Notes: a model not told the origin generated them from the sequence alone. DNA of 64,000 bases from an uncultured Chryseobacterium sp. (GCA_966211705.1 CBIHOC010000024.1:9319-73318), one strand, 5' to 3'; shown: positions 16,112-64,000, counted from the stretch's first letter. Program-made: numbers and translations.

Positions 16112-16138
16112 ATTGTAGGTGCACGATGCATCGTGCAC

Positions 16139-16501
16139 CTACAATTTCGAATCGGTAACGACCATTGTCCCGATCGGCCCTTTTTGTATGATCTTCTTCC
16201 CCTTCTTTTTTGCTTTTTTGTAGAGGCGAACGGTGAATGTCTGTTCCTCTTTTCCTTTCAGCAGCGAGCTGAATTCCGCGCTCTCGCCGACGCCGCGCCT
16301 GACGCAGTCGCCCGACTGGTCGTAAATTTCATAGGAGACTTCCTGGCTGAATACGAGCTTGTGCTTTTCGCTGTCGTAATTAGCCGTGTAGGTTTTTCCC
16401 TGCACTTTGAACGTCGCGGAGTTCGTTGCGGCATCCTGGGCGGAAAGGAAATGGGCCGGGAGGCAGAACAGCAAAAGGAGAAGCAGCTTTTTCATGGTCA
16501 A
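16139..16501 (-). CDS. Hypothetical small secreted protein
   Basis: Signal peptide MTMKKLLLLLLFCLPAHFLSAQ. 120 aa, no known domain. Confidence 0.5.
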   Translation of the reverse strand: MTMKKLLLLLLFCLPAHFLSAQDAATNSATFKVQGKTYTANYDSEKHKLVFSQEVSYEIYDQSGDCVRRGVGESAEFSSLLKGKEEQTFTVRLYKKAKKKGKKIIQKGPIGTMVVTDSKL

Positions 16502-16564
16502 ATTTATACGTTCGATGTGAACTTAAGGTTCGAACGAAATGAAGTGCGCAATTAAAGGACACAA

Positions 16565-16765
16565 AAAAGAATTCTCACCGGGAAACCAATTTCCATCTGC
16601 CAGGAATTTCTTTGTGCCTTCGTGCCTTTGTGGCTTTCATTCTTATCGATCCGGCGAGGAAATTTCAACCTTCAAAAACGACATTCTCAGTGAGAGAAAA
16701 TTAATAATGCCACAAAGACACGAAGGCACAAAGGCTTTTCACCGGGGAAACCAATTTCCATCCAC
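16565..16765. repeat. Composite repeat element: 24-nt direct repeats (tcaccggg[g]aaaccaatttccatc at ~16574 and ~16741) flanking a 25-nt inverted repeat (ctttgtgccttcgtgcctttgtggc / gccacaaagacacgaaggcacaaag)
   Basis: Read directly in the sequence. Non-coding gap between two minus-strand genes. The architecture resembles a MITE or cassette-like element, or a large structured RNA. Confidence 0.45.
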
Positions 16766-16798
16766 ACCGAATGCCGCAAAATTTTCTCACGGCGGCAA

Positions 16799-48086: not shown

Positions 48087-51000
48087 TTGAAACAGCGTTT
48101 ACCTGCTTTCATTTTATCCCTTTTCATCGCCACGACGCTGTTCGCGGAGGACCGTTACTGGGTGGGCGGATCGGGAAGCTGGCATGATGCCGCGCACTGG
48201 TCCGGCGTTCCTTACGGTAAAGGCGGTGCAGGCGTTCCCACTGCGAATGACCGGGTCTATATCGGTTACGCCGGAGGACATCAGCACGACACGATCACCG
48301 TCAACGGCATCGCCGACTGTGGAGGAATTAATTATAACCGCACGCCTTCGGAGATCGGTATTGAAAATGCCGCCATCCTGCTCGCTGGTAACGGCGAGAT
48401 CAACGTCAACGGTTCGTTGTATTTCGCAAAACCCTTCGCCGACCTCTTTACCGGCACCTGGAAATTCCTCGATCGCAACGCATGTTTCCGCGACAGCTCC
48501 GTTCCTGAGATCGAAACTTCCGGCCACGTTTTCACCGGCAAAATCGTATTCGCTTCACCGGAATCGACCGAATCTTCCGGCTGCCTGAACAGCTGGATGG
48601 TCAAGGATCAGCTGTATGTGAACAATACTATCGAAGCTCAGAAAGGATCGCAGCTCATTGTTCCGGAGAACGCAAAAGTCGCCGCGCCGAATGTTGCCCG
48701 TCATGCTGAAGGCGAACTGCTCGTACAGGGTGGAACCGTGATCGACGGCAGCACGCAGCGTGTCCATTCCCCCAATTCCCCGCAAAGCCATACCGTCACC
48801 ACGGTCATCGTTCCCAACCTCTGCAACGGCAACTGCAACGCCACGGCCACCGCAGTAGTAACGGGCGGTTCCGGCAGCTTCTCGTACCAGTGGAGCAACG
48901 CGCAGACCACGCAGACGGCCACGAACCTATGCGCCGGCACATACCTGGTCGTTGTGACCGACCTGGTCAACGGCGACCAGATCCCCGCTTTCGCGATCGT
49001 CACCGACCCGCCGCCGCTCGTCATCTTCTTCTTCAACACACCCGCCACCTGCTTCGGCAACTGCGACGGCACCAGCAGCGCGACCGTCGCCGGCGGAACT
49101 CCCGGCTACACGTATGCCTGGTCTCCCGCGCCCGGCGGCGGACAGGGAACGCCCAACGCCACCGGCCTCTGCGCAGGCATATACACGCTGACGGTGACCG
49201 ACAGCAACGGCTGCCAGATCAGCATGCAGTCGATCATCCTTCAGCCCGCGCTGCTCATTGACAATGGAACATTCACCAACGTCTCCTGCTTCGGGTTTTG
49301 CGACGGCACGGCAAGCGTAGCGCCCACCGGGGGCACCGCGCCATATACCTACGACTGGCTGCCCGGCAGCCCGATCGGGGACGGCACGCCTAACATCTCC
49401 AACCTTTGCCCCGGAACGTACACGTGCAACATTACGGATGCGAACGGCTGCACGGATTCGTATGTCGCGACGATCACGCAGCCGCAACCTCTGCAGGCCA
49501 CGCTCAGCAGCACCAACGCATCCTGCTTCGGCGTCTGCGACGGGACTGCCTCTTCGACCGTTTCCGGCGGCACCACGCCGTACAATTACAACTGGATGCC
49601 GGGGAACCTGAACACGCCCAACATCACAGGGCTGTGCGCCGGTACCTACACGCTTACGGTAACCGACAACAACGGTTGTGTGACGACGCAACAGGTAACC
49701 GTCACGGAACCCAACCAGCTGAATGTCACCCCCACAGGAATAAACATTGCCTGCTTTGCGACGTGTACGGGAATAGCCTCGGCCAACGCATCCGGCGGAA
49801 CACCCGGGTATGCTTATTCCTGGGCGCCGGCCGGCGGCACCGGGCCTGTGGCAAACAACCTTTGCCCGGATACATATACGGTCACGGTCACCGACACGAA
49901 CGGGTGCACGACAAACGGCACCGTGGTCATTACGGAACCCACGCAGCTTTTCGGAAATGCAGCCGGAACGGACATCACCTGTTTCGGGGCCTGCAATGGA
50001 TCAGCGACGGCAAACCCTTCAGGAGGAACCGGGCCATACACGTATCTGTGGATGCCCGGGAACCTGACGACACAAACGATTTCAAATTTATGCCCCGGAA
50101 CCTATACGGTTACCGTCACCGATGCGAATAACTGCTCCGACCCGGAAGTGGTGACCATCACCGAGCCGACGCAGCTGCAGACCAATGCGGTGTCGAACAT
50201 GGTTTCCTGTTTCGGCGCCTGCGACGGCACGGCTACAGCGAGTCCCAGCGGCGGCACACCGGGATACACGTATCTCTGGATGCCCGGCGGGCAAACGACG
50301 CCTTCCGTTTCCGGGTGGTGCCCGGGAACGTACACGCTTACGGTAACCGACGCGAACGGCTGCACACGCAACCAGGTGATCACGATCACGCAGCCGAACC
50401 AGCTTACGGTAGGCATCAACGCGACTTCCATTTCCTGCAACAGCGCCTGCAGCGCCGTGCTTTCCGCCACCGTCTCGGGCGGAACACCGGTGTTCACGTA
50501 TTCGTGGGCGCCGGGCGGGCAGACGACGCCCAGCATCAGCAACCAATGCGCCGGCAGCTACACGGTCGACATTACCGACGCAAACGGGTGCACCACGACG
50601 AACAGCATTTCCATTACCCAGCCCACGCCTTTCCAGATCACCACGACGGTTACCGACGTCACCTGCAACAACCTCTGCAACGGCGCGATCACGGTGAGCG
50701 TTTCGGGATCTTCCCCGCCTTACACCTACAGCTGGGCGCCGGGCGGGCAAACCACGCCGACCATTAACGGATTATGCGCAGGATCGTACACGCTTACGAT
50801 CAACGACGCGAGCGGTTGCGACAGCACGATCGTAGTTACGGTAACCGAGCCGACACAGATCACGACCAACGCCACGTTCACCAATGCGACCTGTTCGGGC
50901 GTGTGCAACGGAACAGCTGCGGCAGTGCCGTCCGGCGGCACGGGACCATATACATACCTGTGGATGCCGGGGTCGCTCAATACGCCTTCGGTAAGCGGCC

Positions 51001-54000
51001 TGTGCGCAGGAACGTACACGCTGACGGTGACGGACGCGAACGGCTGCACGGCGAACCAGACTATTACCATCACGCAGCCGCCACCGCTCTCTGCGATCGT
51101 TACCAGCTCTACAGCAAGCTGCGGAAGCTGCAACGGTTCGGCAACGGTAAGTGTAAGCGGCGGAACTTCCCCGTATGCCTATTTCTGGACACCGGCCGGC
51201 GGCACGAACCCGACCGCAACCAATCTTTGCATCGGCAACTACACCTGCACGGTAACCGACGGGCAGGGCTGCACCACCACCGCGACGGTGACCATCGTGC
51301 AGGTGGTGAACATTACGATCACACCGTCGGCCAGCACGCCGAGCTGTTTCGGAAGCTGTGATGCCGTGGCAAGCGCCAACGCTGCGGGCGGCGCGCCACC
51401 GTATACGTACCTGTGGCAACCGGGGAACGTCGTTTCGCAAAACCTCACCGGGCTTTGCGCAGGCTCGTACACAGTTACCGCAACCGACGCGAACGGCTGC
51501 TTCAATTCCGACACGATCATTTTTACCAACCCGGCCCAGCTCGCGCCGACGCCTTCATTCACGAACGTAACGTGTAACGGCGCATGCGACGGAACCGCAT
51601 CCGTAAGCGTAACGGGCGGAACAGGCGGATACAGCTACCTGTGGTCGCCGGGAAATCAAACGACGGCTTCCATCTCCGGGCTTTGCCCGGGAACGTATTC
51701 GGTCACGATCGATGATGCGAACGGTTGTGATACGACTGTCGTTTTCAACATTACCGAACCGACGCTGATCACCGCAAACGAAACGAGCACACCGGCGAAC
51801 TGCACGCTCTGCGACGGAAGCATCACCACCTCGACATCCGGCGGTGTCGGGCCGTACACCTACAGCTGGGCGCCCGGCGGACAAACCACGCCATCCGTGA
51901 CGAATTTATGTCCCGGCGTTTACACCGTTACCATTACCGACGCGTCAGGCTGCCCGGTCAACATACCGATCGCAGTCAGCAACCTCAACGGACCGACACT
52001 TTCTTCATCCTCCACCAACGTCAGCTGTAACGGAGGTTCAGACGGAACGGCTACTGTGGTTGTTACCGGCGGCGCTGCACCGTTCACCTATGACTGGACA
52101 CCCGGCAGTCCCGCCGGCGATGGAACTCCGTCAGTGACAGGTCTTACTGCCGGAACATGGTTCGTGCAGGTCACCGACGCGGTCGGTTGCATCACGTTCG
52201 AGGCGTACACGATCACCGAGCCCCAGCCTTTGCAGGCGAACGCGACGATCACGAACGCCAGCTGCGGCGGCATTTGCGACGGTTCGATCTCGCTCGTCCC
52301 ATCGGGCGGAACAGGGCCGTTCACGTACAGCTGGACCGGCCCGTCGAGCTTCACGGCCACAACGGCAACCATTACCGGCCTCTGCGCAGGAACCTACACG
52401 GTGGACATTACCGACGCCAACAACTGCGTGGTGAACATGACGTTCGCCGTGACGGAACCGCTCACCGTTTCACCGAACGTCACATACACGGATATTACGT
52501 GTAACGGGGCAAGCAACGGAACAGCGCAGGCCAACGTCACGGGAGGAACCGCGCCATACAGCTATAGCTGGACGTCGGGCCAGCTCGTTTCTTCGGTCGT
52601 CAACCTTAGCCCGGGAAGTTATACCGTGACCGTGACCGATGCGAATGGTTGCAGCTCGCAGCAGAGCATTACAATAACAGAACCGCCTGCGCTCGTCAGC
52701 GTCATCACGTCGACCAATGCGCTCTGCAACGGCAGCTGCGACGGAACGGCATCGGTTTTTGCAGCAGGCGGATCGCCGGGATATGCGTTCCTGTGGTCGC
52801 CGGGCGGGCAAACCACTTCCGCGGTGAACGGGTTGTGCGCAGGTGCATATAGCGTCACCACTTCCGACACGAACGGCTGCACGTCGGTGCAATCGGTTAC
52901 GATCTTACAGCCCAATGCAATGACGTTGTCCACGAGCGTAAATGCGGTTTCCTGTTTCGGAAATTGCGACGGTGTGGCAATGGCGAACGCGAACGGCGGA
53001 ACACCGTCTTATTCATATAGCTGGGCGCCTTCCGGTGGAACAGCAGCAACCGCGACCGCGCTTTGCCCCGGCATTTACACGGTAACGCTTACGGATGCGA
53101 ACGGCTGCGTGCAGACAGCGACGGCGAACGTCACACAACCTGCGCAGCTCCAGTCGAACACAGGATTCACAAGCCCGCAATGCAACGGCAACTGCGACGG
53201 CGCTGCCTGGGCCAACCCGATCGGCGGGACCGGGCCGTTTACGTACCTGTGGGCAACCGGCGGGCAGACGACAGACACCATCACCAACCAATGCCCGGGA
53301 ACATACACCGTCACGGTGCGCGATGCGAACGGCTGCCAGGATGTTCAGACGGTGAATGTGCTCGCCACAACCCCCATGACCTTGTCGGTCGCCAGCGCGC
53401 CGGCCAACTGCGGATCCTGCAACGGCACGATCAACGTTGTTCCTTCGGGCGGAACAGGACCGTACACCTATTCATGGACCGGCGGCCTTCCGCCGCAGGC
53501 GAACCAGGTGAACGTCTGCGCGGGCGTTTATACCGTGACGGTTATCGACGCGATGTTATGCTCCGATACATTCGTCATCGCGCTCAACAACTCGGGCGGC
53601 CCGACCGGCGAAACCGTCGTCACTACCCCGGTCAGCTGTCCTTCCGGTTGCGACGGTACGGCAACTGTCACACCGGTCGGCGGAACTTCGCCGTACACGT
53701 ATTCCTGGATCCCCGGCGGGCAGACGGTGAACAGCCTCACGAACATGTGCGGCGGCAGCTACTTCCTGCAAGTGACCGACTCGAACGGCTGCATCCGCTT
53801 TTCGCCCGTGACGATCGCTGAACCCGCACCGATACTTGCCAACGCATTTGTGACCAACGCCTCCTGCTCCGGCATCTGCGACGGCGCGATCACCGTTACG
53901 CCTTCGGGCGGAACGGGCCCGTACACGTACGTATGGGCGCCCGGCGGGCAAACGACTGCGACGATCAGCAACCTTTGCACGGGAACGTACACCGTTTACA

Positions 54001-56417
54001 TCACCGACGCCGGCGGTTGTGTCGACAGCGCAACTGCCACGGTGAATCCATGGAACTCGCTTATTGCAGCCATTACATCGGCAAACCCAACCTGCAGCAA
54101 TCTCTGCAACGGAACTGCAACAGCCAACATTTCATCGGGAACTGCGCCGTTCATCTTCCAGTGGAATGATCCGCTCGGGCAAAGCGCGCAAACGGCCACA
54201 GGACTTTGCGCAGGAACTTATTCGGTGCTGGTGACGGATGCGGCAGGATGCAATTCCACAATCCCCGTTACACTTACCGGTCCCACGCCGATCGTAATTA
54301 ACCCTGCGATCACGCCGACGACCTGCGGACAGTGCAATGGAAGCGTTACGCTCAATGCCGCGGGCGGCACTGCGCCGTATTCGTACACGTGGAGCAACGG
54401 CGCGCCGACCTCTACCGTAAGCAACCTCTGTGCAGGCGTCTACACAGTGGACGTTTCGGATGCAACCGGCTGCACGGCTTCATTCACGATCAACATCAGC
54501 AGCAGCGGCGGACCGACAGCGACGAACGGAACGGTGACCAATGCTTCCTGCAGCGGCGTTTGCGACGGCGCGATCACGGTTGCGCCCGCCGGCGGAATTC
54601 TTCCGTACACCTACAACTGGTTGCCGGGCGGGCAGACCACGCCATCCGTCACCAGCCTCTGCGCGGGAACGTACACGGTGCAGGTCATGGATTCGGCCGG
54701 CTGCGTGCGCGTTGACAGCTTCAACATTACCGCACCGCCTGCAATTCTCCCGAACCAATCGATCACGAACGCGGATTGCGGGGTTTGCAACGGAAGCATC
54801 GTGCTTAACCCGACCGGCGGCACCGGGCCCTACACCTACAACTGGCTTCCCGGCGGACAAACAACATCTTCGATCACCGGCCAGTGCGGCGGCCTTTACA
54901 CGGTCACGATCACGGATGCGACCGGTTGCTCCGTCACGCAATCGGTCCCGGTGAGCAGCCTGAATTCCACGACAGCGATCACCGTGTCGGGCACAGATCT
55001 CAGCTGCGACGGAACATGCGATGGCTCAGCAACCGTTACGATCACCAGCGGAACCGGGCCGTTTACATTCAGCTGGAGTAATGGCGCGACGAACGACACG
55101 CTCACAGGTCTCTGCGCCGGAACGTATCTCGTGCAGGTCACGGACGGCGCCGGTTGCATAACGACGGCGCAGGTGACGATCACGCAGCCGCCGCCGCTTG
55201 CGGGTTCTTTCCTCTTCGTGCAGGATGAGCTTTGCACCGGCGCATGCGATGGTTTCATTACGGCAATCCCTTCCGGCGGAACGTTGCCGTACCAGTATAG
55301 CTGGAGCACTTCACCGGCACAAACCACGGCGACTGCGGTGAACCTGTGCAACGGCATATACACAGTGACAATAACGGATGCGAACGGCTGCTCCATCGTG
55401 CAAAGCGACACCATCGTTTCCCCGGTCGTGCTGGTGCAAGGCGTGCCCGTTGTGACGGACGCAATCTGCAGCAACTCGCCCGACGGCGCGATCGATATTA
55501 CGATCACCGGCGGCGCATTGCCGTACACGTATTCATGGACCGGTCCTGCGCCGTTCGTGGCGAATACGGAAGACGTCACCGGCCTCTATGCGGGAACTTA
55601 TACGGTGGTCATTACCGATGCGAACGGTTGCCAGGTTTCGGACACGATCACCGTCAACGCGACGACGACGGTAATTGCGAATGCAGGCAGCGACACTACT
55701 TCCTGCCAGCTGGGAAGTGTGACGCTTGACGGAACGGGAAGCATAAACGCGCTGTCGTACCAATGGATCGAGCTTCCGTCGATGACGGTGGTCGGAACGA
55801 CGGCGAACCCGACGGTGAACCCGCCGGCAGGAGCGACATCGTATGTGCTCATCGTGACGAACGGCATCTGCACGGATTCCGACACGGTAACGGTCACCAC
55901 GCTGACACCGCCGGTTGCCAACGCAGGCCCGGACGTGGAAATTATTACGGGCATGACGGCAACGATCGGCGGAACACCGACCGGTCCTTCCGGCTCGACA
56001 TACGCATGGGGCCCGTCGACCGGCCTGGGCGACCCGACGCAGGGAAACCCGGTGGCATCGCCGTCCGCGACGACAACTTACACCGTGGTCGTCACGGATG
56101 CGAACGGCTGCACCGACAGCGACACGATGACGGTGATCGTGGTTCCCGAGATCGATTTCCCGAACGGCTTCACGCCGAACGGCGACGGCATCAACGACGT
56201 GTGGGTGATCGACAACATTTATCTTTTCCCGAATTGCCAGGTGGAAGTGTACAACCGCTGGGGTGAATTGCTTTTCGTATCCATCGGCTACAACACGCCG
56301 TGGGATGGAAGGTATGACGGGAAAGATCTTCCTGTCGGCACATATTATTACATCATCCAGCTGAACGACCCGATGTTCCCTGAAGTCTACACCGGTCCGA
56401 TCACGATCATCCGTTAA
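48087..56417 (+). CDS. Giant (2776 aa) SprB-repeat cell-surface adhesin with T9SS type-B (CHU_C) C-terminal sorting domain
   Basis: Signal peptide. More than 30 tandem ~75-80-aa repeats of the form C.G.CDG.A...SGGT.PYTY.W.PGG.TT......LC.GTYT.TVTD.NGC. C-terminus EIDFPNGFTPNGDGINDVWVI...VYNRWGELLF...PWDGRYDGK. A PorP/SprF gene follows. Confidence 0.9.
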   Translation: MKQRLPAFILSLFIATTLFAEDRYWVGGSGSWHDAAHWSGVPYGKGGAGVPTANDRVYIGYAGGHQHDTITVNGIADCGGINYNRTPSEIGIENAAILLAGNGEINVNGSLYFAKPFADLFTGTWKFLDRNACFRDSSVPEIETSGHVFTGKIVFASPESTESSGCLNSWMVKDQLYVNNTIEAQKGSQLIVPENAKVAAPNVARHAEGELLVQGGTVIDGSTQRVHSPNSPQSHTVTTVIVPNLCNGNCNATATAVVTGGSGSFSYQWSNAQTTQTATNLCAGTYLVVVTDLVNGDQIPAFAIVTDPPPLVIFFFNTPATCFGNCDGTSSATVAGGTPGYTYAWSPAPGGGQGTPNATGLCAGIYTLTVTDSNGCQISMQSIILQPALLIDNGTFTNVSCFGFCDGTASVAPTGGTAPYTYDWLPGSPIGDGTPNISNLCPGTYTCNITDANGCTDSYVATITQPQPLQATLSSTNASCFGVCDGTASSTVSGGTTPYNYNWMPGNLNTPNITGLCAGTYTLTVTDNNGCVTTQQVTVTEPNQLNVTPTGINIACFATCTGIASANASGGTPGYAYSWAPAGGTGPVANNLCPDTYTVTVTDTNGCTTNGTVVITEPTQLFGNAAGTDITCFGACNGSATANPSGGTGPYTYLWMPGNLTTQTISNLCPGTYTVTVTDANNCSDPEVVTITEPTQLQTNAVSNMVSCFGACDGTATASPSGGTPGYTYLWMPGGQTTPSVSGWCPGTYTLTVTDANGCTRNQVITITQPNQLTVGINATSISCNSACSAVLSATVSGGTPVFTYSWAPGGQTTPSISNQCAGSYTVDITDANGCTTTNSISITQPTPFQITTTVTDVTCNNLCNGAITVSVSGSSPPYTYSWAPGGQTTPTINGLCAGSYTLTINDASGCDSTIVVTVTEPTQITTNATFTNATCSGVCNGTAAAVPSGGTGPYTYLWMPGSLNTPSVSGLCAGTYTLTVTDANGCTANQTITITQPPPLSAIVTSSTASCGSCNGSATVSVSGGTSPYAYFWTPAGGTNPTATNLCIGNYTCTVTDGQGCTTTATVTIVQVVNITITPSASTPSCFGSCDAVASANAAGGAPPYTYLWQPGNVVSQNLTGLCAGSYTVTATDANGCFNSDTIIFTNPAQLAPTPSFTNVTCNGACDGTASVSVTGGTGGYSYLWSPGNQTTASISGLCPGTYSVTIDDANGCDTTVVFNITEPTLITANETSTPANCTLCDGSITTSTSGGVGPYTYSWAPGGQTTPSVTNLCPGVYTVTITDASGCPVNIPIAVSNLNGPTLSSSSTNVSCNGGSDGTATVVVTGGAAPFTYDWTPGSPAGDGTPSVTGLTAGTWFVQVTDAVGCITFEAYTITEPQPLQANATITNASCGGICDGSISLVPSGGTGPFTYSWTGPSSFTATTATITGLCAGTYTVDITDANNCVVNMTFAVTEPLTVSPNVTYTDITCNGASNGTAQANVTGGTAPYSYSWTSGQLVSSVVNLSPGSYTVTVTDANGCSSQQSITITEPPALVSVITSTNALCNGSCDGTASVFAAGGSPGYAFLWSPGGQTTSAVNGLCAGAYSVTTSDTNGCTSVQSVTILQPNAMTLSTSVNAVSCFGNCDGVAMANANGGTPSYSYSWAPSGGTAATATALCPGIYTVTLTDANGCVQTATANVTQPAQLQSNTGFTSPQCNGNCDGAAWANPIGGTGPFTYLWATGGQTTDTITNQCPGTYTVTVRDANGCQDVQTVNVLATTPMTLSVASAPANCGSCNGTINVVPSGGTGPYTYSWTGGLPPQANQVNVCAGVYTVTVIDAMLCSDTFVIALNNSGGPTGETVVTTPVSCPSGCDGTATVTPVGGTSPYTYSWIPGGQTVNSLTNMCGGSYFLQVTDSNGCIRFSPVTIAEPAPILANAFVTNASCSGICDGAITVTPSGGTGPYTYVWAPGGQTTATISNLCTGTYTVYITDAGGCVDSATATVNPWNSLIAAITSANPTCSNLCNGTATANISSGTAPFIFQWNDPLGQSAQTATGLCAGTYSVLVTDAAGCNSTIPVTLTGPTPIVINPAITPTTCGQCNGSVTLNAAGGTAPYSYTWSNGAPTSTVSNLCAGVYTVDVSDATGCTASFTINISSSGGPTATNGTVTNASCSGVCDGAITVAPAGGILPYTYNWLPGGQTTPSVTSLCAGTYTVQVMDSAGCVRVDSFNITAPPAILPNQSITNADCGVCNGSIVLNPTGGTGPYTYNWLPGGQTTSSITGQCGGLYTVTITDATGCSVTQSVPVSSLNSTTAITVSGTDLSCDGTCDGSATVTITSGTGPFTFSWSNGATNDTLTGLCAGTYLVQVTDGAGCITTAQVTITQPPPLAGSFLFVQDELCTGACDGFITAIPSGGTLPYQYSWSTSPAQTTATAVNLCNGIYTVTITDANGCSIVQSDTIVSPVVLVQGVPVVTDAICSNSPDGAIDITITGGALPYTYSWTGPAPFVANTEDVTGLYAGTYTVVITDANGCQVSDTITVNATTTVIANAGSDTTSCQLGSVTLDGTGSINALSYQWIELPSMTVVGTTANPTVNPPAGATSYVLIVTNGICTDSDTVTVTTLTPPVANAGPDVEIITGMTATIGGTPTGPSGSTYAWGPSTGLGDPTQGNPVASPSATTTYTVVVTDANGCTDSDTMTVIVVPEIDFPNGFTPNGDGINDVWVIDNIYLFPNCQVEVYNRWGELLFVSIGYNTPWDGRYDGKDLPVGTYYYIIQLNDPMFPEVYTGPITIIR

Positions 56418-56425
56418 CACAGCAA

Positions 56426-57352
56426 GTGATGAAAAAACTGTTTACACTTCTCGCTTTTTTCCCGCTCGCTCTTTTCGCGCAGCAGCTGCCGCATTACAGC
56501 CAGTACATGCTGAACGATTACGTGATGAACCCGGCGATCGGCGGGAAGAACAATTATTTCGTCGGCATGTCGGCCAACCGTTACCAGTGGAGCGGCATCA
56601 CCGACGCGCCGCGCACATACATCCTGAGCGTTCACGGGCCGCTGAAGTACGATCACATGGGCGTAGGCGGCCAACTGTTCACCGACATCGTGGGACCGAC
56701 GCGCCGCACGGGATTTTATTTGTCGTACGCCTATCACGCCCCGCTCAACGAAAAGCTGAAGCTTTCTTTCGGCTTATCCGCCGGCATCCTGCAGTTCATG
56801 GTCGACGGGCAGAAGATCAACCTGCACGACCCGGGTGACCTGACGATCATGAATTCCCTGCAGTCGGTGCTGACGCCGGATTTCAGCGCAGGATTTTACC
56901 TGCACCATGAACGTTTCTGGATAGGCGCATCGTGTTTACAGATCCAACAGAACAAGCTGAAATTTTTCGAATACATGTCGAACACGACGAGCGTGATGAA
57001 CCGCCATTATTACGGCATGCTCGGCTACCGGCAGCCCATCGGCGAGGATTTCGTGCTCGAGCCTTCCGCGCTGCTCAAGTTCGTCAACCCGGCGCCGTTC
57101 CAGTTCGACATCGGCCTGCGCGCGATTTACAAGGAGAAATTCTGGCTGGGCGGCTCGTTCCGCAACCGGGATGCGTTCGCTGCGTACATGGGATTCATCA
57201 TCAAAGAAAACCTGACGCTCGGCTACGCGCACGATTTCACCACGACAAACCTGAGGAACTACAGCACCGGCACGCACGAGCTGGTGATCGGCGTGCGCTT
57301 TAACAAGCAGGGGTGGGCGAAGAGCGACGGTTCGCAGATGCAGTTCAACTGA
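56426..57352 (+). CDS. T9SS membrane protein of the PorP/SprF family
   Basis: Signal peptide, PHYSQYMLNDYVMNPAIGG N-terminal motif, 308 aa, 9 nt after the adhesin stop. Confidence 0.85.
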   Translation: MMKKLFTLLAFFPLALFAQQLPHYSQYMLNDYVMNPAIGGKNNYFVGMSANRYQWSGITDAPRTYILSVHGPLKYDHMGVGGQLFTDIVGPTRRTGFYLSYAYHAPLNEKLKLSFGLSAGILQFMVDGQKINLHDPGDLTIMNSLQSVLTPDFSAGFYLHHERFWIGASCLQIQQNKLKFFEYMSNTTSVMNRHYYGMLGYRQPIGEDFVLEPSALLKFVNPAPFQFDIGLRAIYKEKFWLGGSFRNRDAFAAYMGFIIKENLTLGYAHDFTTTNLRNYSTGTHELVIGVRFNKQGWAKSDGSQMQFN

Positions 57353-57466
57353 GCTCTATTTCCAAAAGAGATTCAAACTTCTCTGTTTATTAGCATCTGC
57401 ACCTGATCTGATCCGGTATTCGGTTTGGCCAGGATTATACTTAGTTTCCCATTCTTCATTAAGATC

Positions 57467-58726
57467 TTACAATTCACCCAGGTAATGGAATGAGCTTACC
57501 TGGTCATATTCATCATACTGCCGGAATTGTCCTTGCTTATCAATAAACCCTTTTTTGCCATTTTTAGTCACTTTAGCCATGCCACCGGAAAAAGAGGAGG
57601 CGTTTTCATACTCAAACGGAAGTACAACTTTTCCACTGTGATCGATAAATCCATACTTGCCGGCAACGTTTTTCACATGCGCAAGACTATCAGAAAACTG
57701 GTATGCATAAGCAAATTGCAAAGGGATTACTACCTTTCCTGATGTGTCGATGAATCCAAATTTACCGTCTTTTCTGACCGAACATAGTCCTTCTTTGATC
57801 CCAAACATCACTTCATATCTGGGAGGAACTATAGTGTCTCCTGATCCGGACAGTAACCCGTACTTGTGATTTGCGTACGAAAAAAAAATCGCCATGTCGA
57901 GGTCACTGTCATACAGCCATGTGCTGTCAGCGATTTCTCGGATCACCAGGCCCGCTGTATCGATCAGCATTTTTCTCGTGACATAATTTCGAACACTGTC
58001 ATCAAATACCTTACGAATTACGAAAGCCGTGCGTTTATTATCAAAAGCTCTTCCTTCATCATATATACATGGGATCACCAATTTCCCGTTCCGATTTACA
58101 AACCCTATTTTACGTGTGTGCGGATCTATTACGAGTAACCTGTTGCAATGAAATTCGAACGTAGCAACCATTTCCGGAGCGATATCCTTATCTAACATAT
58201 CAGGTGAAATAACGACTTCCCCGGATGTGTCCACGAATGCCAGGCGAAAATGTTGTGGTCCGTTCTTTTTCGAAAGACCGATAGCGGCTAAGTTTTCGTT
58301 AAAGCGACCCAGTCCCTCTACTTCATATTCATTATTAATTCTGACTGTTTTTATTTTATTATTATTTTTTGTAATAATCCAAACGTCATTTCCTAGCCTG
58401 ACCATCGCGCGGCCCTCTCCGAATCTTGCTGCTTCATCATACATGAGCGGTATCGCCAGGTTCCCCAGTGAGTCATAAAACCCCTGCTTACCATTTTCGC
58501 AAACACCATAAAAACCTTCACTCCAGCCTGAAGAACTATAGTTGACAGGGGAAAACCGACATGGTACTATCTCTTTGCCTTCGGCGTTGATATACCCGAA
58601 CTGTTCATTGGTGCCGTTCCTTTTCCTTACTTCAGCTACGGAAATCGGGCCTGTTTTCGTCTCCGTGCAAGAAAAAAAAATCGAGGAGAACGTTGTAAAA
58701 AAAAATAGTTGTCTCAGATATCTCAT
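57467..58726 (-). CDS. WG-repeat (KWG-type beta-repeat) lipoprotein
   Basis: Start refined to MRYLRQLFFFTTFSSIFFSC (lipobox-like Cys). Repeated GKxGFID/YGFIDxSGKVVIP motifs of the WG_beta_rep family. AT-richer than the surrounding genome. Confidence 0.75.
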   Translation of the reverse strand: MRYLRQLFFFTTFSSIFFSCTETKTGPISVAEVRKRNGTNEQFGYINAEGKEIVPCRFSPVNYSSSGWSEGFYGVCENGKQGFYDSLGNLAIPLMYDEAARFGEGRAMVRLGNDVWIITKNNNKIKTVRINNEYEVEGLGRFNENLAAIGLSKKNGPQHFRLAFVDTSGEVVISPDMLDKDIAPEMVATFEFHCNRLLVIDPHTRKIGFVNRNGKLVIPCIYDEGRAFDNKRTAFVIRKVFDDSVRNYVTRKMLIDTAGLVIREIADSTWLYDSDLDMAIFFSYANHKYGLLSGSGDTIVPPRYEVMFGIKEGLCSVRKDGKFGFIDTSGKVVIPLQFAYAYQFSDSLAHVKNVAGKYGFIDHSGKVVLPFEYENASSFSGGMAKVTKNGKKGFIDKQGQFRQYDEYDQVSSFHYLGEL

Positions 58727-58751
58727 GGTCTGTAAAAGTAGGACATCCTCT

Positions 58752-61700
58752 CTATTTCTCATTTTTCTCGACAACAGGCACAGGAGTCCACCAGCGACGT
58801 TTATAATACCAGGAGAACTCCGCACCGGCATTCCACCCGATCTTGTGCTTTTTGGTCCCGTCGGCAAGCTCGATATCCGTAAGCCAGAACCCCTCGACCA
58901 ACTGTATCCGAGCATAGGGCTCATCGCCGTGATAGAGCGGAGTCCCGACCGCAGTGTACACGCTGACGATCTTCACCGGTACTTTGTCATAAAATTTGCC
59001 TAACCCGCCTTTAAACGAAACATGGAAGTTCACCCACACCGCCACTTCGCTCTGCCTGTATATTTCGAGCACCTTGGGATCGTCGAACCCTCCTTCGAAA
59101 TAAACGTCGGCGCCGATCGCGGAGGGTTGTGTGACAGACAATGTTTCGTTGCTTGCGTTGACCGCGGTTTCATTGCTCCCGGCATTTTTATTTTTAGGCA
59201 ATGTGTCGATCCTGGTCGGATAGCTAACGGTCGTATTGTCTTTTTGTTCACGCTTAACCAGGTCCGGCGGCGGCGCAACCGGTTTAATGACGGAAAGCTT
59301 TTTGTAGGGTGTGTCCGTGAACCCTGCTCCATAGGGAGAAATCATTTTGCCGGAATCGGTCAGCACGGAATTATACGACCTGAGGTCGTCGACATTGACA
59401 AGCGCATAACCGCCTGTGTTAAGCGCGTAGTTATACCTGGTGTGGGTTCCGGACGTTTCCATCGATTCGTAGCTGGCGGTGACAATGTAATAATCCATCA
59501 GCAACTCCAGGGTATACGCATCGGCAGCCTGCACCAGCACATAATCGTCGGGGTCGCCGGGATAATGATCCCGGAATGGTTGCCAACTTTGCATGTAATT
59601 AATTTCTGCTTTCCTGAACATGGGTATCCTGTTCTCCATCGTTTTTTCGCCGGTTATCGTTTCCGCCTCGTCCAGTTCGATCGGTTTTGTCCTGAAGTAG
59701 CGGTTGATCGTATATACCGATTCGTCTGTGGAGAACAGCTCCTCATCGCTGTCCATCATATCGAACTGCTGCTGTTCGGCCTGCCTCGCCAGGTGATATA
59801 ACCCGTCGAGCATCTCCTGCTGCTCCTCGCTATAGAAGGAAACCCTTTTCTCATCCCTTGCGAGCCACACATTGTAGCCCCATTTCCCTTCAAGGTAGTG
59901 CAGGCGCCGGTTGCCGGATTCGTCGGTGATATAAGCGAACCACGATTTCAGGTCGAGCACTTCGGCGAACATATCATAAAATACGGCCTCCATACCTCCA
60001 TTATCATAGGTCAGATCGCCTTCGACCACTGCATGGAATCCTTCTACGGATGTGATATTTGCAAAACGGGGATCGTCAACGAGCGCGGCTTTGATCCGGT
60101 CTTCATTCGACATGTTTTCGGTACCGGCGATCTGCTCGTTATCATCATCAAGCAGCATGACCCCGGGTTCAATTCCTTTATCCTTCCACCAGCGTATTTC
60201 GCTCTGTCCTGCCAGGTCTATTTTGGATCGTTCGATATCCTCCATCGCATCCGCAATTTCCTCGTTTTCCATGTACTCACGCGTCATATCCAACAATTGC
60301 ACGATCAGGAAGAACCAGGCAGCGCCCTTTGTGCCAGCCGATGGCGTCGCGGTTCTTGCACTTTTCTCTACCATTTGTTCCAGCTCAACCTGCCTTTTCG
60401 TCACCCTGTTCATTTCCTGTACCGTCCTGCTGTACAGCTGCATTTCCCTTTCACCCGAGCTCAGCTTCGTTCTTCCCAGTTTGTTTCGCATACTTAACGT
60501 AGCCTTGGCCCATACCATCGCATATTGAAACGCCTCCTTCATGAATGTTGTGCCGACAACCATTCCCGCCTGTTGCACGACACTCATCTGGTACGCTTTT
60601 GCTTTCGCCAGTGCGCCCAGGTCTTTCCGTGCCGTCGCATCCCTGATCATTGCGGATGAAAAGGAGATCATCTGCGTGAAGGTCATCACGGACAAATTAT
60701 CGATGTATTCTTTTTCCAGCTTTTCGAACTCCGCCTTGCCCATAGCCTGCTCGACTTTGTTGGCTGCCGCTGTCACCTGTGTCATGTCCATTTCCCCTGA
60801 TCTCAAGCCTCCGGGGTTTGCTTCACCTGCTTTTATCATCTCCAGCCAGAAAGCATTGATCGATGTCTTCAGGCGTGAAATGGGATCCGGAAGACGGGAG
60901 GTGAAATCGGCCAGTGAAGCCGTATAAGTGCTCAGAAGGGTTTTCCCGCCTCCTTTTTCCTGCTTGAGCTGGGGATCAAGAATGCCTTTCAGCATGGTAA
61001 TGTTGCGATGAATCTCCTGGAGCTGGGAAAGCTTCAGTTGAGCGGCCTGCATGCGGGTGATCGTTTCCTTATCCGCGTAGAACCGGTTAAAAAGTCCGCC
61101 GAAATCGACCGTATATTTTTTGCCTCCTTCGTATTTCTTCGTTTTCGAATTTTCAGTTACGGGTTCACTTTTGATGATCTCGGCTTCCTGCAAAATGGTT
61201 ACGGTCCCGGAGGGGGACGATTCAGCGCCCGCTTTCTGCTGGGCGAACATGTTGAGGTTCCCTCCGCTCGCTTCGAAGCTCAGGCGCAGCAGCTCGATCA
61301 TGCCCTTGACGTCTCCTTTCCCTACTTTGCCTCCATGGTGCGCATGCTCCAGCACACGGAGATTCGTTCCGCCCGCTCCCATCAGCTTTATCATTACTTC
61401 GGGCGTTATCGCGTTGATGATCTTCTCCATCCCTTTTCCCGTGAGGTCAGACGTAAAGACCATGCTTGTTCCCAGGGAAAGGTCGTACAGGATGGTAATC
61501 GGGCTCGTTTCATTCACGGTCATTTTCTCCGTGTTCTTCGGGTTCAGGCGCATCTCGATCATCTTGAGCCCATTCATGACGCGCTGTGTCATGTTGACGT
61601 CGCCTCCTTCCACCCGGATTTCCAGAATATTCTCCCCGGCTACGCGCTGCACGTATGCCGTTTTCCATGCCGCAAGGCCTTTGATGTTTTCTTCGTATTT

Positions 61701-62885
61701 ATACCGGGCCACCCGTACGACCATATTTTCCATTCCCGGCAGCAGCTTGAGGCGGTCAAGTTCCGAGAAATGGTCCTTGTCGAAATGCGATATCGTAGTT
61801 TCAAAAGGTAATTGCGAACCGGAAATTTTTGCCGTTTGCTGTACCTGCTCGGTAAGATCTTTTACCCTTAAATTGTAAGGAGCTCCCGCGTCCATCAGTA
61901 ATGAACGGCCATCCTGGTTCAGGGTGACCATGATCGACCGTGCAGCGCCTCTCGGGAGAACATAAACGCTTATTGCCGCTCTCGGCGTTTTTGTTTGCAG
62001 CCGGAACGTTCTTTCCTTAATGGAGACGACATATTCATTGGCGGGCCCTGCCGATGTAATGCAGGAGTCCTCGTAGAGATCAAGTTTGTAATCGGTGCCA
62101 AAAGTATTTGTTACAAGGGTTTTCAGTTCGGGATCGCCGTCGAGCAGTTCCAGGAATTCTTTAATGACGACCGCCGGGTCGACCTTGCGCTGGATCTTTG
62201 CCATTACTCCCTTTCCCTGCTGCACCGTATGTGTCACCTCATGCGCCAGCAAACTCTTCCCCTCCGCCGTACCCGGATTATAATTCCCCCCCTTAAAATA
62301 AATATCCTGTCCATGCGTAAACGCCTTCGCATTGATCCCCTCACTCATCGAACTGGCCGTGCTTCCGGTATGAATTTTCACGCCTGAAAGATCGGTTCCT
62401 GTATGCTGCTCTAGTTCGCCCTTCGTATTGCCGTCAAGGCTTTGCCCCTGTCCCTTTGTCGCCGACAGTTGCTGATCGAACTCCGGTGTGGTTGTCAATG
62501 TCCCGTTTTCTCCTTTCATACTGATCTCCGGCCCCGCCTGCTCCATCGTCATTCGTGACATGTTCACGTCGCCGCGCGAAACCGCATCTGCCAGCTTGTC
62601 CGCCTGCATCTCCGACGAATCATGAGGCTGCGAAATTTCCAGCTTGGCCTGTACGAACATTTTTTGCTGCTCTATTGATTTTCGGAGGATTGCACGGCCA
62701 GTCTGGTCCACATGAGTTTGCGAAAACTGGTTCGCACCATCCTTCATCATCCGCGATATCTGCTCATTGCTGAGCGAAGCGATATAACGAAATACTTGCT
62801 GCCGGCCGGAATTTCCTTTCTTACGGTTAGCCTTTCCTTTGTCCTTTTCTTCTTTATGGCCCTGATCGTAAGTTCTCATATTCAA
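58752..62885 (-). CDS. Large (1377 aa) multidomain protein with an N-terminal DUF4157 domain (putative HExxH zinc metallopeptidase-like). Candidate eCIS-associated effector/toxin.
   Basis: Residues ~90-225: EMQADKLADAV...DLSGVKIHTGSTASSMSEGINAKAFTHGQDIYFKGGNYNPGTAEGKSLLAHEVTHTVQQ matches the DUF4157 consensus, including HEVTH. No signal peptide. Sits immediately downstream of an AAA+ ATPase. Confidence 0.8.
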   Translation of the reverse strand: MNMRTYDQGHKEEKDKGKANRKKGNSGRQQVFRYIASLSNEQISRMMKDGANQFSQTHVDQTGRAILRKSIEQQKMFVQAKLEISQPHDSSEMQADKLADAVSRGDVNMSRMTMEQAGPEISMKGENGTLTTTPEFDQQLSATKGQGQSLDGNTKGELEQHTGTDLSGVKIHTGSTASSMSEGINAKAFTHGQDIYFKGGNYNPGTAEGKSLLAHEVTHTVQQGKGVMAKIQRKVDPAVVIKEFLELLDGDPELKTLVTNTFGTDYKLDLYEDSCITSAGPANEYVVSIKERTFRLQTKTPRAAISVYVLPRGAARSIMVTLNQDGRSLLMDAGAPYNLRVKDLTEQVQQTAKISGSQLPFETTISHFDKDHFSELDRLKLLPGMENMVVRVARYKYEENIKGLAAWKTAYVQRVAGENILEIRVEGGDVNMTQRVMNGLKMIEMRLNPKNTEKMTVNETSPITILYDLSLGTSMVFTSDLTGKGMEKIINAITPEVMIKLMGAGGTNLRVLEHAHHGGKVGKGDVKGMIELLRLSFEASGGNLNMFAQQKAGAESSPSGTVTILQEAEIIKSEPVTENSKTKKYEGGKKYTVDFGGLFNRFYADKETITRMQAAQLKLSQLQEIHRNITMLKGILDPQLKQEKGGGKTLLSTYTASLADFTSRLPDPISRLKTSINAFWLEMIKAGEANPGGLRSGEMDMTQVTAAANKVEQAMGKAEFEKLEKEYIDNLSVMTFTQMISFSSAMIRDATARKDLGALAKAKAYQMSVVQQAGMVVGTTFMKEAFQYAMVWAKATLSMRNKLGRTKLSSGEREMQLYSRTVQEMNRVTKRQVELEQMVEKSARTATPSAGTKGAAWFFLIVQLLDMTREYMENEEIADAMEDIERSKIDLAGQSEIRWWKDKGIEPGVMLLDDDNEQIAGTENMSNEDRIKAALVDDPRFANITSVEGFHAVVEGDLTYDNGGMEAVFYDMFAEVLDLKSWFAYITDESGNRRLHYLEGKWGYNVWLARDEKRVSFYSEEQQEMLDGLYHLARQAEQQQFDMMDSDEELFSTDESVYTINRYFRTKPIELDEAETITGEKTMENRIPMFRKAEINYMQSWQPFRDHYPGDPDDYVLVQAADAYTLELLMDYYIVTASYESMETSGTHTRYNYALNTGGYALVNVDDLRSYNSVLTDSGKMISPYGAGFTDTPYKKLSVIKPVAPPPDLVKREQKDNTTVSYPTRIDTLPKNKNAGSNETAVNASNETLSVTQPSAIGADVYFEGGFDDPKVLEIYRQSEVAVWVNFHVSFKGGLGKFYDKVPVKIVSVYTAVGTPLYHGDEPYARIQLVEGFWLTDIELADGTKKHKIGWNAGAEFSWYYKRRWWTPVPVVEKNEK

Positions 62886-62905
62886 TAGTGTTAATAGTGT
62901 TATTC

Positions 62906-64000
62906 TTAAAAATTCTTCCGGTGCTCATACCCGGCGCCATAACGCCGGGCCGGATTGGTCATTACCATTTCATCGGTACATATTTCATACTTACGCCCTG
63001 TCTTTTTAAACTCATCCGCTATAGCCTGTTCCAGGATTTTGAAGGTGATTGTTTCCATATTCCGATCGAGCGCTTCAATAACGCCCTCCGAAATAATATT
63101 GTAAATCCCTCCCCCGGAAAACTGGTAATCTTTTGCTAACCGGTCAACCAAACCGTCTTCATATTTAAAAGGCTCGTTCAACGCATTTTTCCAGAGAAGA
63201 ATACGTTCAGGATATTCCGGGAAATTAAACGCCACGATTTGACGTATACGACGCTGAAAGGCTTTGTCAAAATACTGGGACAGGTTTTGTACGTTGGTTG
63301 CGAGGATCACTATGCCGTTATATTCTTCTATTTTCTGAAGGAGAAAGGACTGCTCGTTGTTCGCGTGCTTATCATGCGAATCTTTCACTTCAATACGCTT
63401 GCTAAAAATCGATTCGGCTTCATCAAAGAATAAAATACTCGGCTGCCCGCTGAAACGATCAAATACCCGCTCGAGGTTTTTCTCAGTTTCGCCGATGTAT
63501 TTCGAAACGAGTTGTGCAAAATTTACCTTATACACCGGCAGATGCAGTTCGTTACCTATAGCTTCGGCGGTATGGCTTTTTCCCGTTCCGGGATCCCCGC
63601 TAAAAATACCAATGAAGTTTTGCCGATATTTTTGACCATTAGGCAGCGACCATAGTTTTTTCATGTTTCGGGCAAAACGACGAAGCTTTTCCAGTTCAAT
63701 AATCGTCTTTTCATCAAGGACTACATCCTTCATCGTATGCGTGTGCTTGCCACGCCTTACCGGAAAATGGGAATCGCCGTCTAAACTGGGAGCATTACCG
63801 TGCAGTATCGCTGACAAGAACTGTTCGTTGAAGAGCAGCTCATGCTCGAGAAAATTTGTGTTTTCGTGTGTCGGGTGAGAAAGCAGGATATTCGAGGTAA
63901 AAAGTTTGTGGCGGCTGTTGAAAAGACAGAGATAATAGTCGATCAACTCTTCATCCTCACCGGCCAGCAAAAATATAGCTGTGCGAACAGTTGGATAAAA
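62906..64000 (-). CDS. AAA+ ATPase, 5'-partial (N-terminus lies beyond the window end). Afp15/Pvc15-like candidate.
   Basis: Walker A GDPGTGKSH, Walker B ILFFDEAE, second region of homology, sensor residues. The reading frame stays open to base 64000 and the listed start at 63970 is a TTG. Confidence 0.8.
   Translation of the reverse strand, partial: FYPTVRTAIFLLAGEDEELIDYYLCLFNSRHKLFTSNILLSHPTHENTNFLEHELLFNEQFLSAILHGNAPSLDGDSHFPVRRGKHTHTMKDVVLDEKTIIELEKLRRFARNMKKLWSLPNGQKYRQNFIGIFSGDPGTGKSHTAEAIGNELHLPVYKVNFAQLVSKYIGETEKNLERVFDRFSGQPSILFFDEAESIFSKRIEVKDSHDKHANNEQSFLLQKIEEYNGIVILATNVQNLSQYFDKAFQRRIRQIVAFNFPEYPERILLWKNALNEPFKYEDGLVDRLAKDYQFSGGGIYNIISEGVIEALDRNMETITFKILEQAIADEFKKTGRKYEICTDEMVMTNPARRYGAGYEHRKNF

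Follow-up and report, generated by a model that had tools for sequence, protein, structure and literature searches.

We analysed a 64,000-nucleotide stretch of DNA from an uncultured Chryseobacterium sp. (the window), in which a minus-strand gene encodes a large DUF4157 protein. We favour, with moderate confidence, the reading that this protein is a polymorphic cargo of the eCIS type whose effector module is new and nuclease-like, with a trafficking N-terminus joined to a payload of the ComEC/Pce metallo-beta-lactamase (MBL) type. The first ~230 residues, comprising a polar N-terminus and DUF4157, would form the trafficking unit. By analogy with loading into the tube lumen by Alg15/Pvc15, the AAA+ ATPase whose gene lies 26 nt upstream may recognise this unit, and the protein would be delivered by an eCIS with its genes elsewhere in the genome. 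The payload would be a conserved ~890-residue module made of a two-metal MBL-fold phosphodiesterase core, a helical region and an alpha/beta domain. The MBL domain would cut phosphodiester bonds in the target cell, most likely in DNA or RNA, and may in this way be toxic.

The cargo gene and its N-terminal region

The mechanical ORF (58752..62885, minus strand) has 1377 codons, with TTG first and the ATG at 62879 as codon 3. The ATG is the likelier start because the identical database protein P0001 begins there. Residue numbers in this paper follow the 1377-aa count from TTG and not the 1375-aa count. The ORF proposed by the first-pass annotation is real, and two of its other statements held as well: the protein has no TM-like segment (the top 19-aa Kyte-Doolittle mean is 1.15) and no internal repeat by self-BLAST. 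The whole protein had no matches in NCBIfam, PHROGs or PADLOC, a phmmer search of the PDB gave nothing meaningful, and a genome scan of species representatives with the protein as query gave no match. The cargo is not a T9SS substrate, as it has no Por_Secre_tail or CHU_C domain. Proteins with these domains are encoded by neighbours of the cargo gene.

Residues 3–149 are 71% polar and 22% hydrophobic, a composition which suggests that this region is disordered. It is followed by the only Pfam domain of the protein, PF13699 (eCIS_core/DUF4157), which was matched at E=2.9e-27 and 95.1 bits (cutoff 22), over profile positions 2–78 of 79. The HExxH zincin motif is intact as HEVTH at residues 215–219 (62229–62243), within LLAHEVTHTVQQ. 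The earlier assignment of DUF4157 with an intact HEVTH is therefore borne out, also when scored against the Pfam HMM.

The N-terminal ~232 aa, from residue 1, are common to more than 30 proteins at 46–76% identity. The C-termini of these proteins are unrelated and include WHH/colicin-DNase, Ntox35, Het-C, amidase and LysM domains; identity to proteins that end in such other toxin domains is 50–76%. A conserved N-terminus with variable C-terminal effectors is a feature of eCIS cargo of the Cgo/EAT type. The DUF4157 domain and, starting at about residue 76, the N-terminus also align with cargo proteins inside eCIS loci.

Table 1. Coordinates of the cargo gene, its parts and its neighbours in the window.
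Feature	Position	Strand	Basis or remark
AAA+ ATPase gene, cut by window end	62906..64000	minus	26 nt upstream of cargo
Cargo gene, DUF4157 protein	58752..62879	minus	1375 aa from ATG 62879; same as database protein P0001
Polar N-terminal region, putative loading sequence, residues 3–149	62439..62879	minus	composition; pre-DUF4157 motif QAKLEISQPHDSSEMQADKLADAV
DUF4157 / eCIS_core zincin-like domain, residues 150–226	62208..62438	minus	Pfam PF13699
MBL-fold domain, ComEC/Pce-like, residues ~304–586	61128..61976	minus	Foldseek, family profile
Motif 1 LLMDAG, D332	61884–61901	minus	
Motif 2 SHFDKDH, H367 D369 D371 H372	61770–61790	minus	
N458/S461	61500–61517	minus	
Motif 4 FTSD, D480	61446–61463	minus	
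Motif 5 EHAHHGG, E513 H516 H517	61329–61349	minus	
Long-helix region of module, residues ~595–902	60180..61103	minus	conserved in family
C-terminal alpha/beta domain of module, residues ~904–1172	59370..60176	minus	
Lineage-specific tail, ~200 aa	58800..59369	minus	most family members without tail
Cargo gene stop codon	58752–58754	minus	
WG-repeat lipoprotein gene, 419 aa, lipobox MRYLRQLFFFTTFSSIFFSC	57467..58726	minus	25 nt downstream of cargo

The conserved module and its MBL-fold domain

Residues 235–1377 had no Pfam match even at E≤10. In an exhaustive HMMER search, 42 cluster representatives, 39 of them at E<1e-10, proved to share a module of ~890 aa (residues ~285–1172 here) at 19–28% identity. 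The first-pass annotation had left ~1100 aa unassigned, of which ~890 aa belong to this family. The C-terminal region is no orphan, and the module family is rare, conserved and enzyme-bearing; the window protein is its most divergent member, at 19–25% identity. The module is 795–910 aa long in all representatives but one fragmentary member. DUF4157 was present in 28 of 28 members scanned and is N-terminal in nearly all 42; the actinobacterial members are without DUF4157 and lie outside CIS loci. Most members stop 0–30 aa past the module, and therefore the module is the entire C-terminal payload there. These simple members total 1150–1270 aa. Long members (2000–2800 aa) have a second DUF4157 after the module, and some carry toxin or peptidase domains such as PT-HINT, Endonuclease_NS_2 and Aspzincin.

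A word-indexed homologue search with the single sequence recovered the cargo protein alone, and the same search with a trimmed module alignment added one member. A genome scan with a 4-sequence sub-alignment matched five genomes, none of them Algoriphagus. When the whole-protein alignment was used, the word-indexed search was swamped by DUF4157-only proteins.

Structure prediction and profile searches found an MBL fold in a region whose effector domains had been called unrecognisable. The best Foldseek matches of the predicted structure (AF2 models of moderate confidence, pLDDT 65.7 and 72.6) are MBL proteins, with Pce as the second-best match, and the domain has the alpha-beta/beta-alpha sandwich fold. 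The family profile matched the MBL nucleases INTS11, CPSF73 and RNase Z in the PDB at motifs 1–2 (E=1.6e-4). The Pfam Lactamase_B models did not match the window protein at E≤10; one of 28 relatives matched Lactamase_B (9.5e-5) and Lactamase_B_2 (1e-3), and another member is named MBL hydrolase in IMG.

The His-rich stretches, ISHFDKDHF at residues 365–373 and LRVLEHAHHGGKVG at residues 509–522, had been taken to resemble metal-binding motifs only faintly. The stretches are neither faint nor accidental, being near-invariant: no fewer than 33 of the 36 sequences keep D332, H367, D369, D371, H372, D480, E513, H516 and H517, with an overall identity of ~22%. Motif 2 reads H-x-D-x-D-H in 33 of 36 rows and H-x-H-x-D-H in one, with gaps in the other two. 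The first-pass annotation had counted H-F-D-K-D-H as a mismatch to the MBL signature, but it is the same variant as H598-x-D600-x-D602-H603 of ComEC. The ComEC nuclease domain with this variant is a Mn2+-dependent DNase, for which H598, D602, H603 and D700 are essential (PMC12455585). D332, D480 and H516/H517 vary little or not at all, and their order and spacing suggest equivalence to ComEC D700/H725. In hhalign, the family and E. coli YcaI were aligned at the right motifs, although weakly (E=0.0045, probability 7.7%). Judging from the motifs and the model, the MBL domain is probably a metal-dependent phosphodiesterase, and probably a nuclease.

The likeness to ComEC is one of fold and active site and not of family membership. 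Sequence identity to the ComEC beta-lactamase-like nuclease domain (PDB 9IC4, Moorella glycerini) is 13%. The window protein lacks the channel (competence) domain, the OB fold and the membrane segments of ComEC, with no Competence/OB Pfam match, and is instead fused to DUF4157 and ~600 aa of conserved sequence. A housekeeping MBL or competence protein is ruled out by the missing channel domain, the DUF4157 fusion and the homologues in eCIS loci.

The remaining ~600 aa of the module have no assigned function. They hold about 300 aa of long helices, of which residues ~777–878 were modelled at low confidence, and an alpha/beta domain whose confident model has no PDB match. The invariant residues of this domain are W899/W900, P907, W1002, P1088, R1055, T1125 and N1156. 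In the structure model the tail consists of a low-confidence linker (1173–1247) and a small beta-rich domain (1248–1362); only P0039 is similar to it, and weakly.

Cassette, eCIS loci and alternative readings

In L001, an identical metagenome contig, the ATPase is 468 aa long. It shares 31–34% identity over 340–440 aa with ATPases of true eCIS loci, and its likeness to those of L003, L009 and L010 extends N-terminal to the AAA core. It is thus a partner ATPase of the Afp15/Pvc15/Alg15 kind. With ATPases from other orphan cassettes it shares 62–84% identity, and across cassettes the identities of ATPase and cargo N-terminus co-vary (84/76, 75/64, 75/56 and 62/50%). The WG-repeat lipoprotein gene is probably the third gene of the cassette; no terminator-like site lies between it and the cargo gene. 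In four of five cassettes a small or accessory gene is next on the same strand, and no immunity gene was recognisable in the cassette. Cassette G+C is 0.47–0.51, lower than most of the window. A scan for sigma-70 promoters and terminators came out lower than expected from shuffled sequence, and such a scan is not informative in Bacteroidota. The Het-C cassette in L014/L015 likewise has a WG-repeat gene at its flank, convergently oriented. A downstream lipoprotein is an odd partner for a cytoplasmic nuclease.

The first-pass annotation had referred to long DUF4157 proteins near eCIS loci, which does not hold for this copy. We found no eCIS structural genes (sheath, tube, baseplate, spike) in the 58.7 kb downstream of the cargo, nor in the ~1 kb that L001 shows on the upstream side of the ATPase, where a cold-shock gene lies. 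Four further cassettes sharing this ATPase and N-terminus likewise have no CIS genes in the available flanking DNA (10 kb to either side in L014 and L016, shorter elsewhere). Since CIS genes are lacking around all of these, an eCIS in the source genome is assumed and not seen. Module homologues directly follow CIS_TMP in six loci (L003, L004, L006, L009, L010 and L011); in L002 they lie next to baseplate/PAAR genes. The loci with the module after the tape-measure gene come from Saprospiraceae, a Bacteroidales MAG and metagenome contigs. For the proposed cargo toxin, then, the architecture (polar N-terminus, DUF4157, large C-terminal region), the ATPase, the shared N-terminus and the homologues in eCIS loci all stand, whereas proximity of this copy to an eCIS locus does not.

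The cargo role could be the same and the MBL domain not a nuclease but an esterase or phosphodiesterase similar to Pce. Its substrates would then belong to the envelope or be small molecules, for instance phospholipid head groups, cyclic nucleotides, or phosphorylcholine carried by teichoic acids or glycans. Pce is not a nuclease. An accessory nucleic-acid-binding domain, which MBL nucleases usually require, was not identified in the module; the active site is of the ComEC DNase variant. We regard the Pce-like activity as unlikely. A shade less likely still is that the module is not a toxin but a conserved eCIS accessory or delivery part, serving lumen filling, translocation or maturation and sometimes carrying the real toxin behind it. 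The fixed slot after the tape-measure gene in six eCIS-locus fragments is more like that of a core gene than of a variable payload, the 2000–2800-aa members continue past the module, the long helices would suit such a part, and linkers of >1000 aa between DUF4157 and toxin domains were described by Geller et al. (PMC8213781). However, most members have no further domain past the module, the near-invariant residues of catalytic type point to an enzyme, and actinobacterial members occur without DUF4157 and CIS. In the cassette clade of the window, moreover, the module fills the slot of bona fide toxin domains.

It is also conceivable, although we consider it very improbable, that the ATPase and DUF4157 effector act autonomously without a contractile particle, as an abortive-infection or defence pair similar to IetA-IetS or as a toxin released in another way. 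Five independent cassettes (window/L001, L014-15, L016-17, L019 and L020) have no CIS structural gene in the available DNA, the ATPase matches PADLOC IetA at 1.3e-30, and the low G+C is as expected for a mobile island. But the IetA match does not discriminate, because true eCIS ATPases score 108–112 bits against 105 here, and it is no ground for assuming an IetAS-like defence system. An IetS-type protease partner is absent and the cargo has no PADLOC match. The alignment of the N-terminus and DUF4157 with eCIS-locus cargo also argues against autonomy, and T6SS commonly has orphan effector islands at a distance from the machine. In surveys, DUF4157 has very high eCIS specificity (PMC8213781).

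Our preferred reading of an eCIS-type cargo can be extended, more speculatively and with less likelihood than the cargo reading itself, to a dispersed Bacteroidota cassette of 2–3 genes. The cassette would contain a dedicated ATPase, a DUF4157 protein with an N-terminus co-evolving with the ATPase and a freely swapped C-terminus, and sometimes a WG-repeat lipoprotein. It might supply a remote eCIS through a private loader or act without a contractile particle, and its payload might be the founding member of an ~890-aa MBL-nuclease effector family, whose members in eCIS loci follow the tape-measure gene at a constant position.

Related systems and significance

One of the closest known systems is AlgoCIS Cgo1/Cgo2 of Algoriphagus machipongonensis, with the same three parts (NTD-DUF4157-CTD), the same phylum and an AAA+ ATPase partner (Alg15). 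Cgo1/Cgo2 fill the tube lumen (PMC8894135); their NTD is needed for particle loading and DUF4157 is dispensable (bioRxiv 10.64898/2026.05.27.728243). Cgo2, at 1228 aa, is of the size of the simple family members, and a literature search found no published function or fold for its large CTD. Cgo1/2 are encoded inside the eCIS cluster, whereas no such cluster is visible around the window gene.

Tme of Streptomyces davawensis, a DUF4157-nuclease effector associated with a Streptomyces CIS (PMC11126660), and the EATs of Geller et al. likewise have an N-terminal DUF4157, a long region and a C-terminal enzyme that targets nucleic acids. These proteins are associated with CIS, and their expression is toxic (PMC11126660, PMC8213781, PMC11297309). 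Tme differs in its EndA-like endonuclease, TM helices and tape-measure-like region, and our literature search found no MBL-fold EAT. Polymorphic toxin systems and orphan effector islands (T6SS, Rhs, CDI) also combine a conserved N-terminal trafficking part with swapped C-terminal toxins, at several loci per genome. In contrast to these, each island here has its own AAA+ ATPase co-varying with the cargo N-terminus, and no immunity protein was identified.

About half of predicted eCIS toxins are DUF4157 proteins, most of them without a second annotated domain (PMC11297309), and the long sequences that follow DUF4157 have been regarded as linkers (PMC8213781). In the present case one of these sequences resolves into a conserved module that bears an enzyme domain. 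Its ComEC-type two-metal active site predicts a biochemical activity that can be tested, and offers clear choices for point mutants. The recurring ATPase-cargo cassette, with its co-varying N-terminus, is a natural system for cargo recognition by an eCIS AAA+ ATPase, which matters for engineering eCIS as protein-delivery tools. The cassettes also raise the question of whether a contractile particle is needed at all.

The proposed cargo protein and its module family

Counted from a TTG, the cargo ORF contains 1377 codons, the length given in the first-pass annotation. Its third codon is an ATG, and P0001, a 1375-aa protein from public assemblies, is identical to the cargo protein from this ATG onward. 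We therefore took the ATG as the start and retained the 1377-residue numbering. The sole Pfam domain is PF13699 (DUF4157, present name eCIS_core), matched at E=2.9e-27 with 95.1 bits versus a gathering score of 22, which upholds the proposed DUF4157 domain with HEVTH. The remaining 1143 residues had no Pfam match, even at E≤10. The whole protein had no match in NCBIfam, PHROGs or PADLOC, and no meaningful match in a PDB sequence search. The highest 19-residue hydropathy mean was 1.15; no TM-like segment and no internal repeat were found, in agreement with the annotation.

A word-indexed homologue search with the cargo protein returned only itself. When 1.84 billion cluster representatives were scanned exhaustively with HMMER, 42 relatives emerged (E<1e-10 in 39), aligning with the module at 19–28% identity. 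The C-terminal sequence previously described as unassigned thus belongs to a family. Module length was 795–910 aa in the family alignment, with a fragmentary member of 725 aa as the single exception. All 28 family members scanned carry an N-terminal DUF4157. Most members stop 0–30 residues past the module, so that the module is their whole C-terminal payload. About ten long members (1550–2835 aa) have a second HExxH/DUF4157 beyond it, and a few of these also have PT-HINT, Endonuclease_NS_2 or Aspzincin domains. In P0004, P0005, P0008, P0010, P0017, P0020, P0025 and P0037, the second HExxH/DUF4157 is ~1100–1250 residues from the first, just beyond the module; long members repeat the DUF4157-payload order inside a single polypeptide.

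Of all members, the window's protein diverges most. It has an extra tail of ~205 aa, modelled as a low-confidence linker followed by a small beta domain, and a weakly similar tail occurs in P0039 alone. P0039, the closest relative, has a Trypco1 and Trypsin_2 gene pair ~3 kb away.

Positions of the features (residue numbers refer to the cargo protein; L numbers are database DNA loci)
Feature	Sequence	Position	Remark
Cargo ORF	window	58752–62885 (-)	
ATG taken as start	window	62879	
PF13699	cargo protein	150–226	
HEVTH	cargo protein	215–219	
Module	cargo protein	~285–1172	
Long helices	cargo protein	~595–902	partly low-confidence
Tail	cargo protein	1173–1377	
WG-repeat (PF14903) lipoprotein gene	window	57467–58726 (-)	25 nt downstream of cargo gene
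Low-G+C cassette region	window	56001–64000	G+C 0.47–0.52
SprB and PorP/SprF pair	window	48087–57352	
SprB and PorP/SprF pair	window	36–3838	
Large ORF, 945 aa	window	33462–36299 (+)	
Large ORF, 806 aa	window	36347–38767 (+)	
Large ORF, 527 aa	window	16799–18382 (-)	
WG-repeat gene of Het-C cassette	L014	12868–14178	convergent
WG-repeat gene of Het-C cassette	L015	5914–7224	convergent
P0011	L003, L004	region 8492–13735 (L003)	directly 3' of tape-measure gene PF19268
P0044	L006	region 8456–17176	directly 3' of tape-measure gene PF19268
Membranihabitans marinus DP5N28-2 (cultured strain) member	L010	region 5921–12667	directly 3' of PF19268 gene
Saprospiraceae MAG member	L011		directly 3' of PF19268 gene
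Bacteroidales MAG member	L009		directly 3' of PF19268 gene
Micromonosporaceae member	L013	7001–10213	
Trypco1 and Trypsin_2 gene pair	L022	7537–9328	

The MBL domain

The conserved blocks of the module are GKGRSilv..LDAG, SHxDxDH, KNxTSPVTVV.D, FTAD and ExPHHGG. Four findings indicate a metallo-beta-lactamase (MBL) fold. The family profile matched the MBL nucleases INTS11, CPSF73 and RNase Z among PDB sequences at motifs 1–2 (E=1.6e-4), one member matched Pfam Lactamase_B (9.5e-5), and another is annotated as an MBL hydrolase by IMG. AlphaFold2 gave a moderate model of the window's own module from a 15-sequence alignment (pLDDT 65.7), and its best Foldseek matches in PDB were MBL-fold proteins. 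The effector domain, first considered not recognisable, therefore has an assignable fold.

Both His-rich stretches noted in the first-pass annotation are in place. The window's H367-F-D369-K-D371-H372 is the same variant of H-x-H-x-D-H as ComEC's H598-x-D600-x-D602-H603, described with structure 9IC4 (PMC12455585). This ComEC domain is a Mn2+-dependent DNase, for which H598, D602, H603 and D700 are essential (PMC12455585). D332, H367, D369, D371, H372, D480, E513, H516 and H517 are each kept in 33 or more of the 36 family sequences, whose overall identity is ~22%. The two stretches are thus MBL motifs 2 and 5, belonging to a strongly constrained, ComEC-like active site, rather than the faint metal-motif resemblance first suggested. 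The window's protein is not ComEC itself, since the channel domain, OB fold and membrane segment are all missing.

The long helices of the module had only generic coiled-coil matches. In its C-terminal alpha/beta domain (residues 904–1172), which seems to have a new fold, mainly W, P, G, Y, R and N are conserved, and these form no evident catalytic cluster.

A recurring cassette of ATPase and proposed cargo

An AAA+ ATPase gene lies 26 nt upstream of the cargo gene on the same strand and is cut at the window end. Metagenome contig L001, which is identical, gives a full ATPase length of 468 aa and has a cold-shock gene ahead of it. It is 31–34% identical to true eCIS-locus ATPases across 340–440 residues. 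Its PADLOC match to IetA (105 bits) was rejected as a sign of a defence role because eCIS-locus ATPases score equally, at 108–112 bits.

Cargo residues 1–232 recur from residue 1, at 46–76% identity, in over 30 proteins whose C-termini are unrelated and include WHH, colicin-DNase, Ntox35, Het-C, amidase_2 and LysM. Five such proteins were examined. An ATPase of 464–468 aa is immediately upstream in four (L014/15, L016/17, L019 and L020), 62–84% identical to the window ATPase; the fifth, in L018, is without one. The L014 cassette belongs to assembly GCA_900291705.1. No CIS structural gene was found at the five loci (10 kb on both flanks in L014, L016 and L018, shorter elsewhere). Across the cassettes, identities of the ATPase and the N-terminus to those of the window drop together (84/76, 75/64, 75/56 and 62/50%), which fits recognition of the cargo N-terminal region by the ATPase. 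L019 and L020 come from one sequencing run, so several cassettes may be present in a single community or genome.

No terminator-like site was found in the 25 nt between the cargo gene and the WG-repeat lipoprotein gene. The Het-C cassette is also flanked by a WG-repeat gene; the two proteins are ~23–30% identical, a similarity driven by the repeats. The WG-repeat gene may have an immunity or accessory role, or its presence may be coincidental.

The window is a chromosome segment of Bacteroidota type. Its genes include those for SUF, succinate dehydrogenase, sigma-54, histidine kinases and T9SS substrates, and it has two SprB/PorP pairs. In each pair a giant SprB-repeat/CHU_C T9SS surface protein is followed by a PorP/SprF gene; one SprB protein is 2776 aa and the other at least 916 aa, extending toward the window start. 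In L005, too, an SprB/CHU_C gene adjoins a member of the module family. The three large ORFs in the table had no Pfam match at E≤0.001. G+C is ~0.53–0.63 in most of the window and 0.59–0.61 in the adjacent SprB gene, and the lower value across the cassette would fit an island gained by horizontal transfer.

Relatives in eCIS loci and the proposed role of the payload

In each tape-measure locus, the MBL-module gene comes right after the tape-measure gene. Giant upstream proteins are present in L003, L006, L009, L010 and L011, and an eCIS-type AAA ATPase is further down in L003, L009 and L010. A DUF6851/VCPO-like (vanadium chloroperoxidase/PAP2-type) gene follows the MBL-module gene in L003, L004 and L010; after it come, in L003 and L010, a ~615-aa DUF4157 protein and the AAA ATPase. 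The P0002 gene follows baseplate genes, with PAAR close by. P0020 is encoded among clustered giant DUF4157 proteins; within 10 kb there are no structural genes.

We consider it somewhat probable that the window's protein is a polymorphic eCIS-type cargo with a phosphodiesterase payload and an N-terminus read by the AAA+ ATPase. The neighbouring ATPase would recognise the N-terminal ~230 aa as an address, by the precedent of AlgoCIS Cgo1/Cgo2, where the NTD is required for particle loading, the Alg15 ATPase mediates loading and DUF4157 is dispensable. By size alone, Cgo2 (ALPR1_12690; 1228 aa) falls among the simple members of the family. For the payload we propose a two-metal phosphodiesterase, judged from its structural neighbours to act most likely on DNA or RNA; DUF4157-nuclease fusions such as Tme are known among CIS effectors. 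These neighbours include Pce, a non-nuclease, which weakens the nuclease assignment, and a non-nuclease esterase is an unlikely alternative payload. The reading is also weakened by ~600 conserved module residues without explanation. The fixed slot behind the tape-measure gene and the additional toxins of long members suggest a conserved accessory or delivery part that is not a toxin, which we rate slightly lower again. Sheath, tube, baseplate, spike and tape-measure genes were not found in the window, and an eCIS in the source genome is assumed rather than seen, a further weakness of the cargo reading. A cassette acting independently of a particle seems very improbable.

DUF4157 eCIS-associated effectors with a swapped C-terminus are already known (PMC8213781, PMC11297309, PMC8894135). 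In the searchable literature we found no description of a family defined by the ~890-aa module with its MBL domain, of an MBL or ComEC-like enzyme as an eCIS payload, or of a dispersed ATPase and cargo cassette with co-varying partners. DUF4157 is missing from the actinobacteria-type members, P0159 in L007 and one in L013, whose gene neighbours are unrelated, and no CIS genes are in view. Both are high-G+C, with N-termini of ~100 aa; the neighbours are an HTH_3/Peptidase_M78 regulator and a BTAD/NB-ARC/TPR SARP-type regulator, respectively. Since some members are in eCIS loci and others outside, the module is an autonomous unit, linked to eCIS often but not always.
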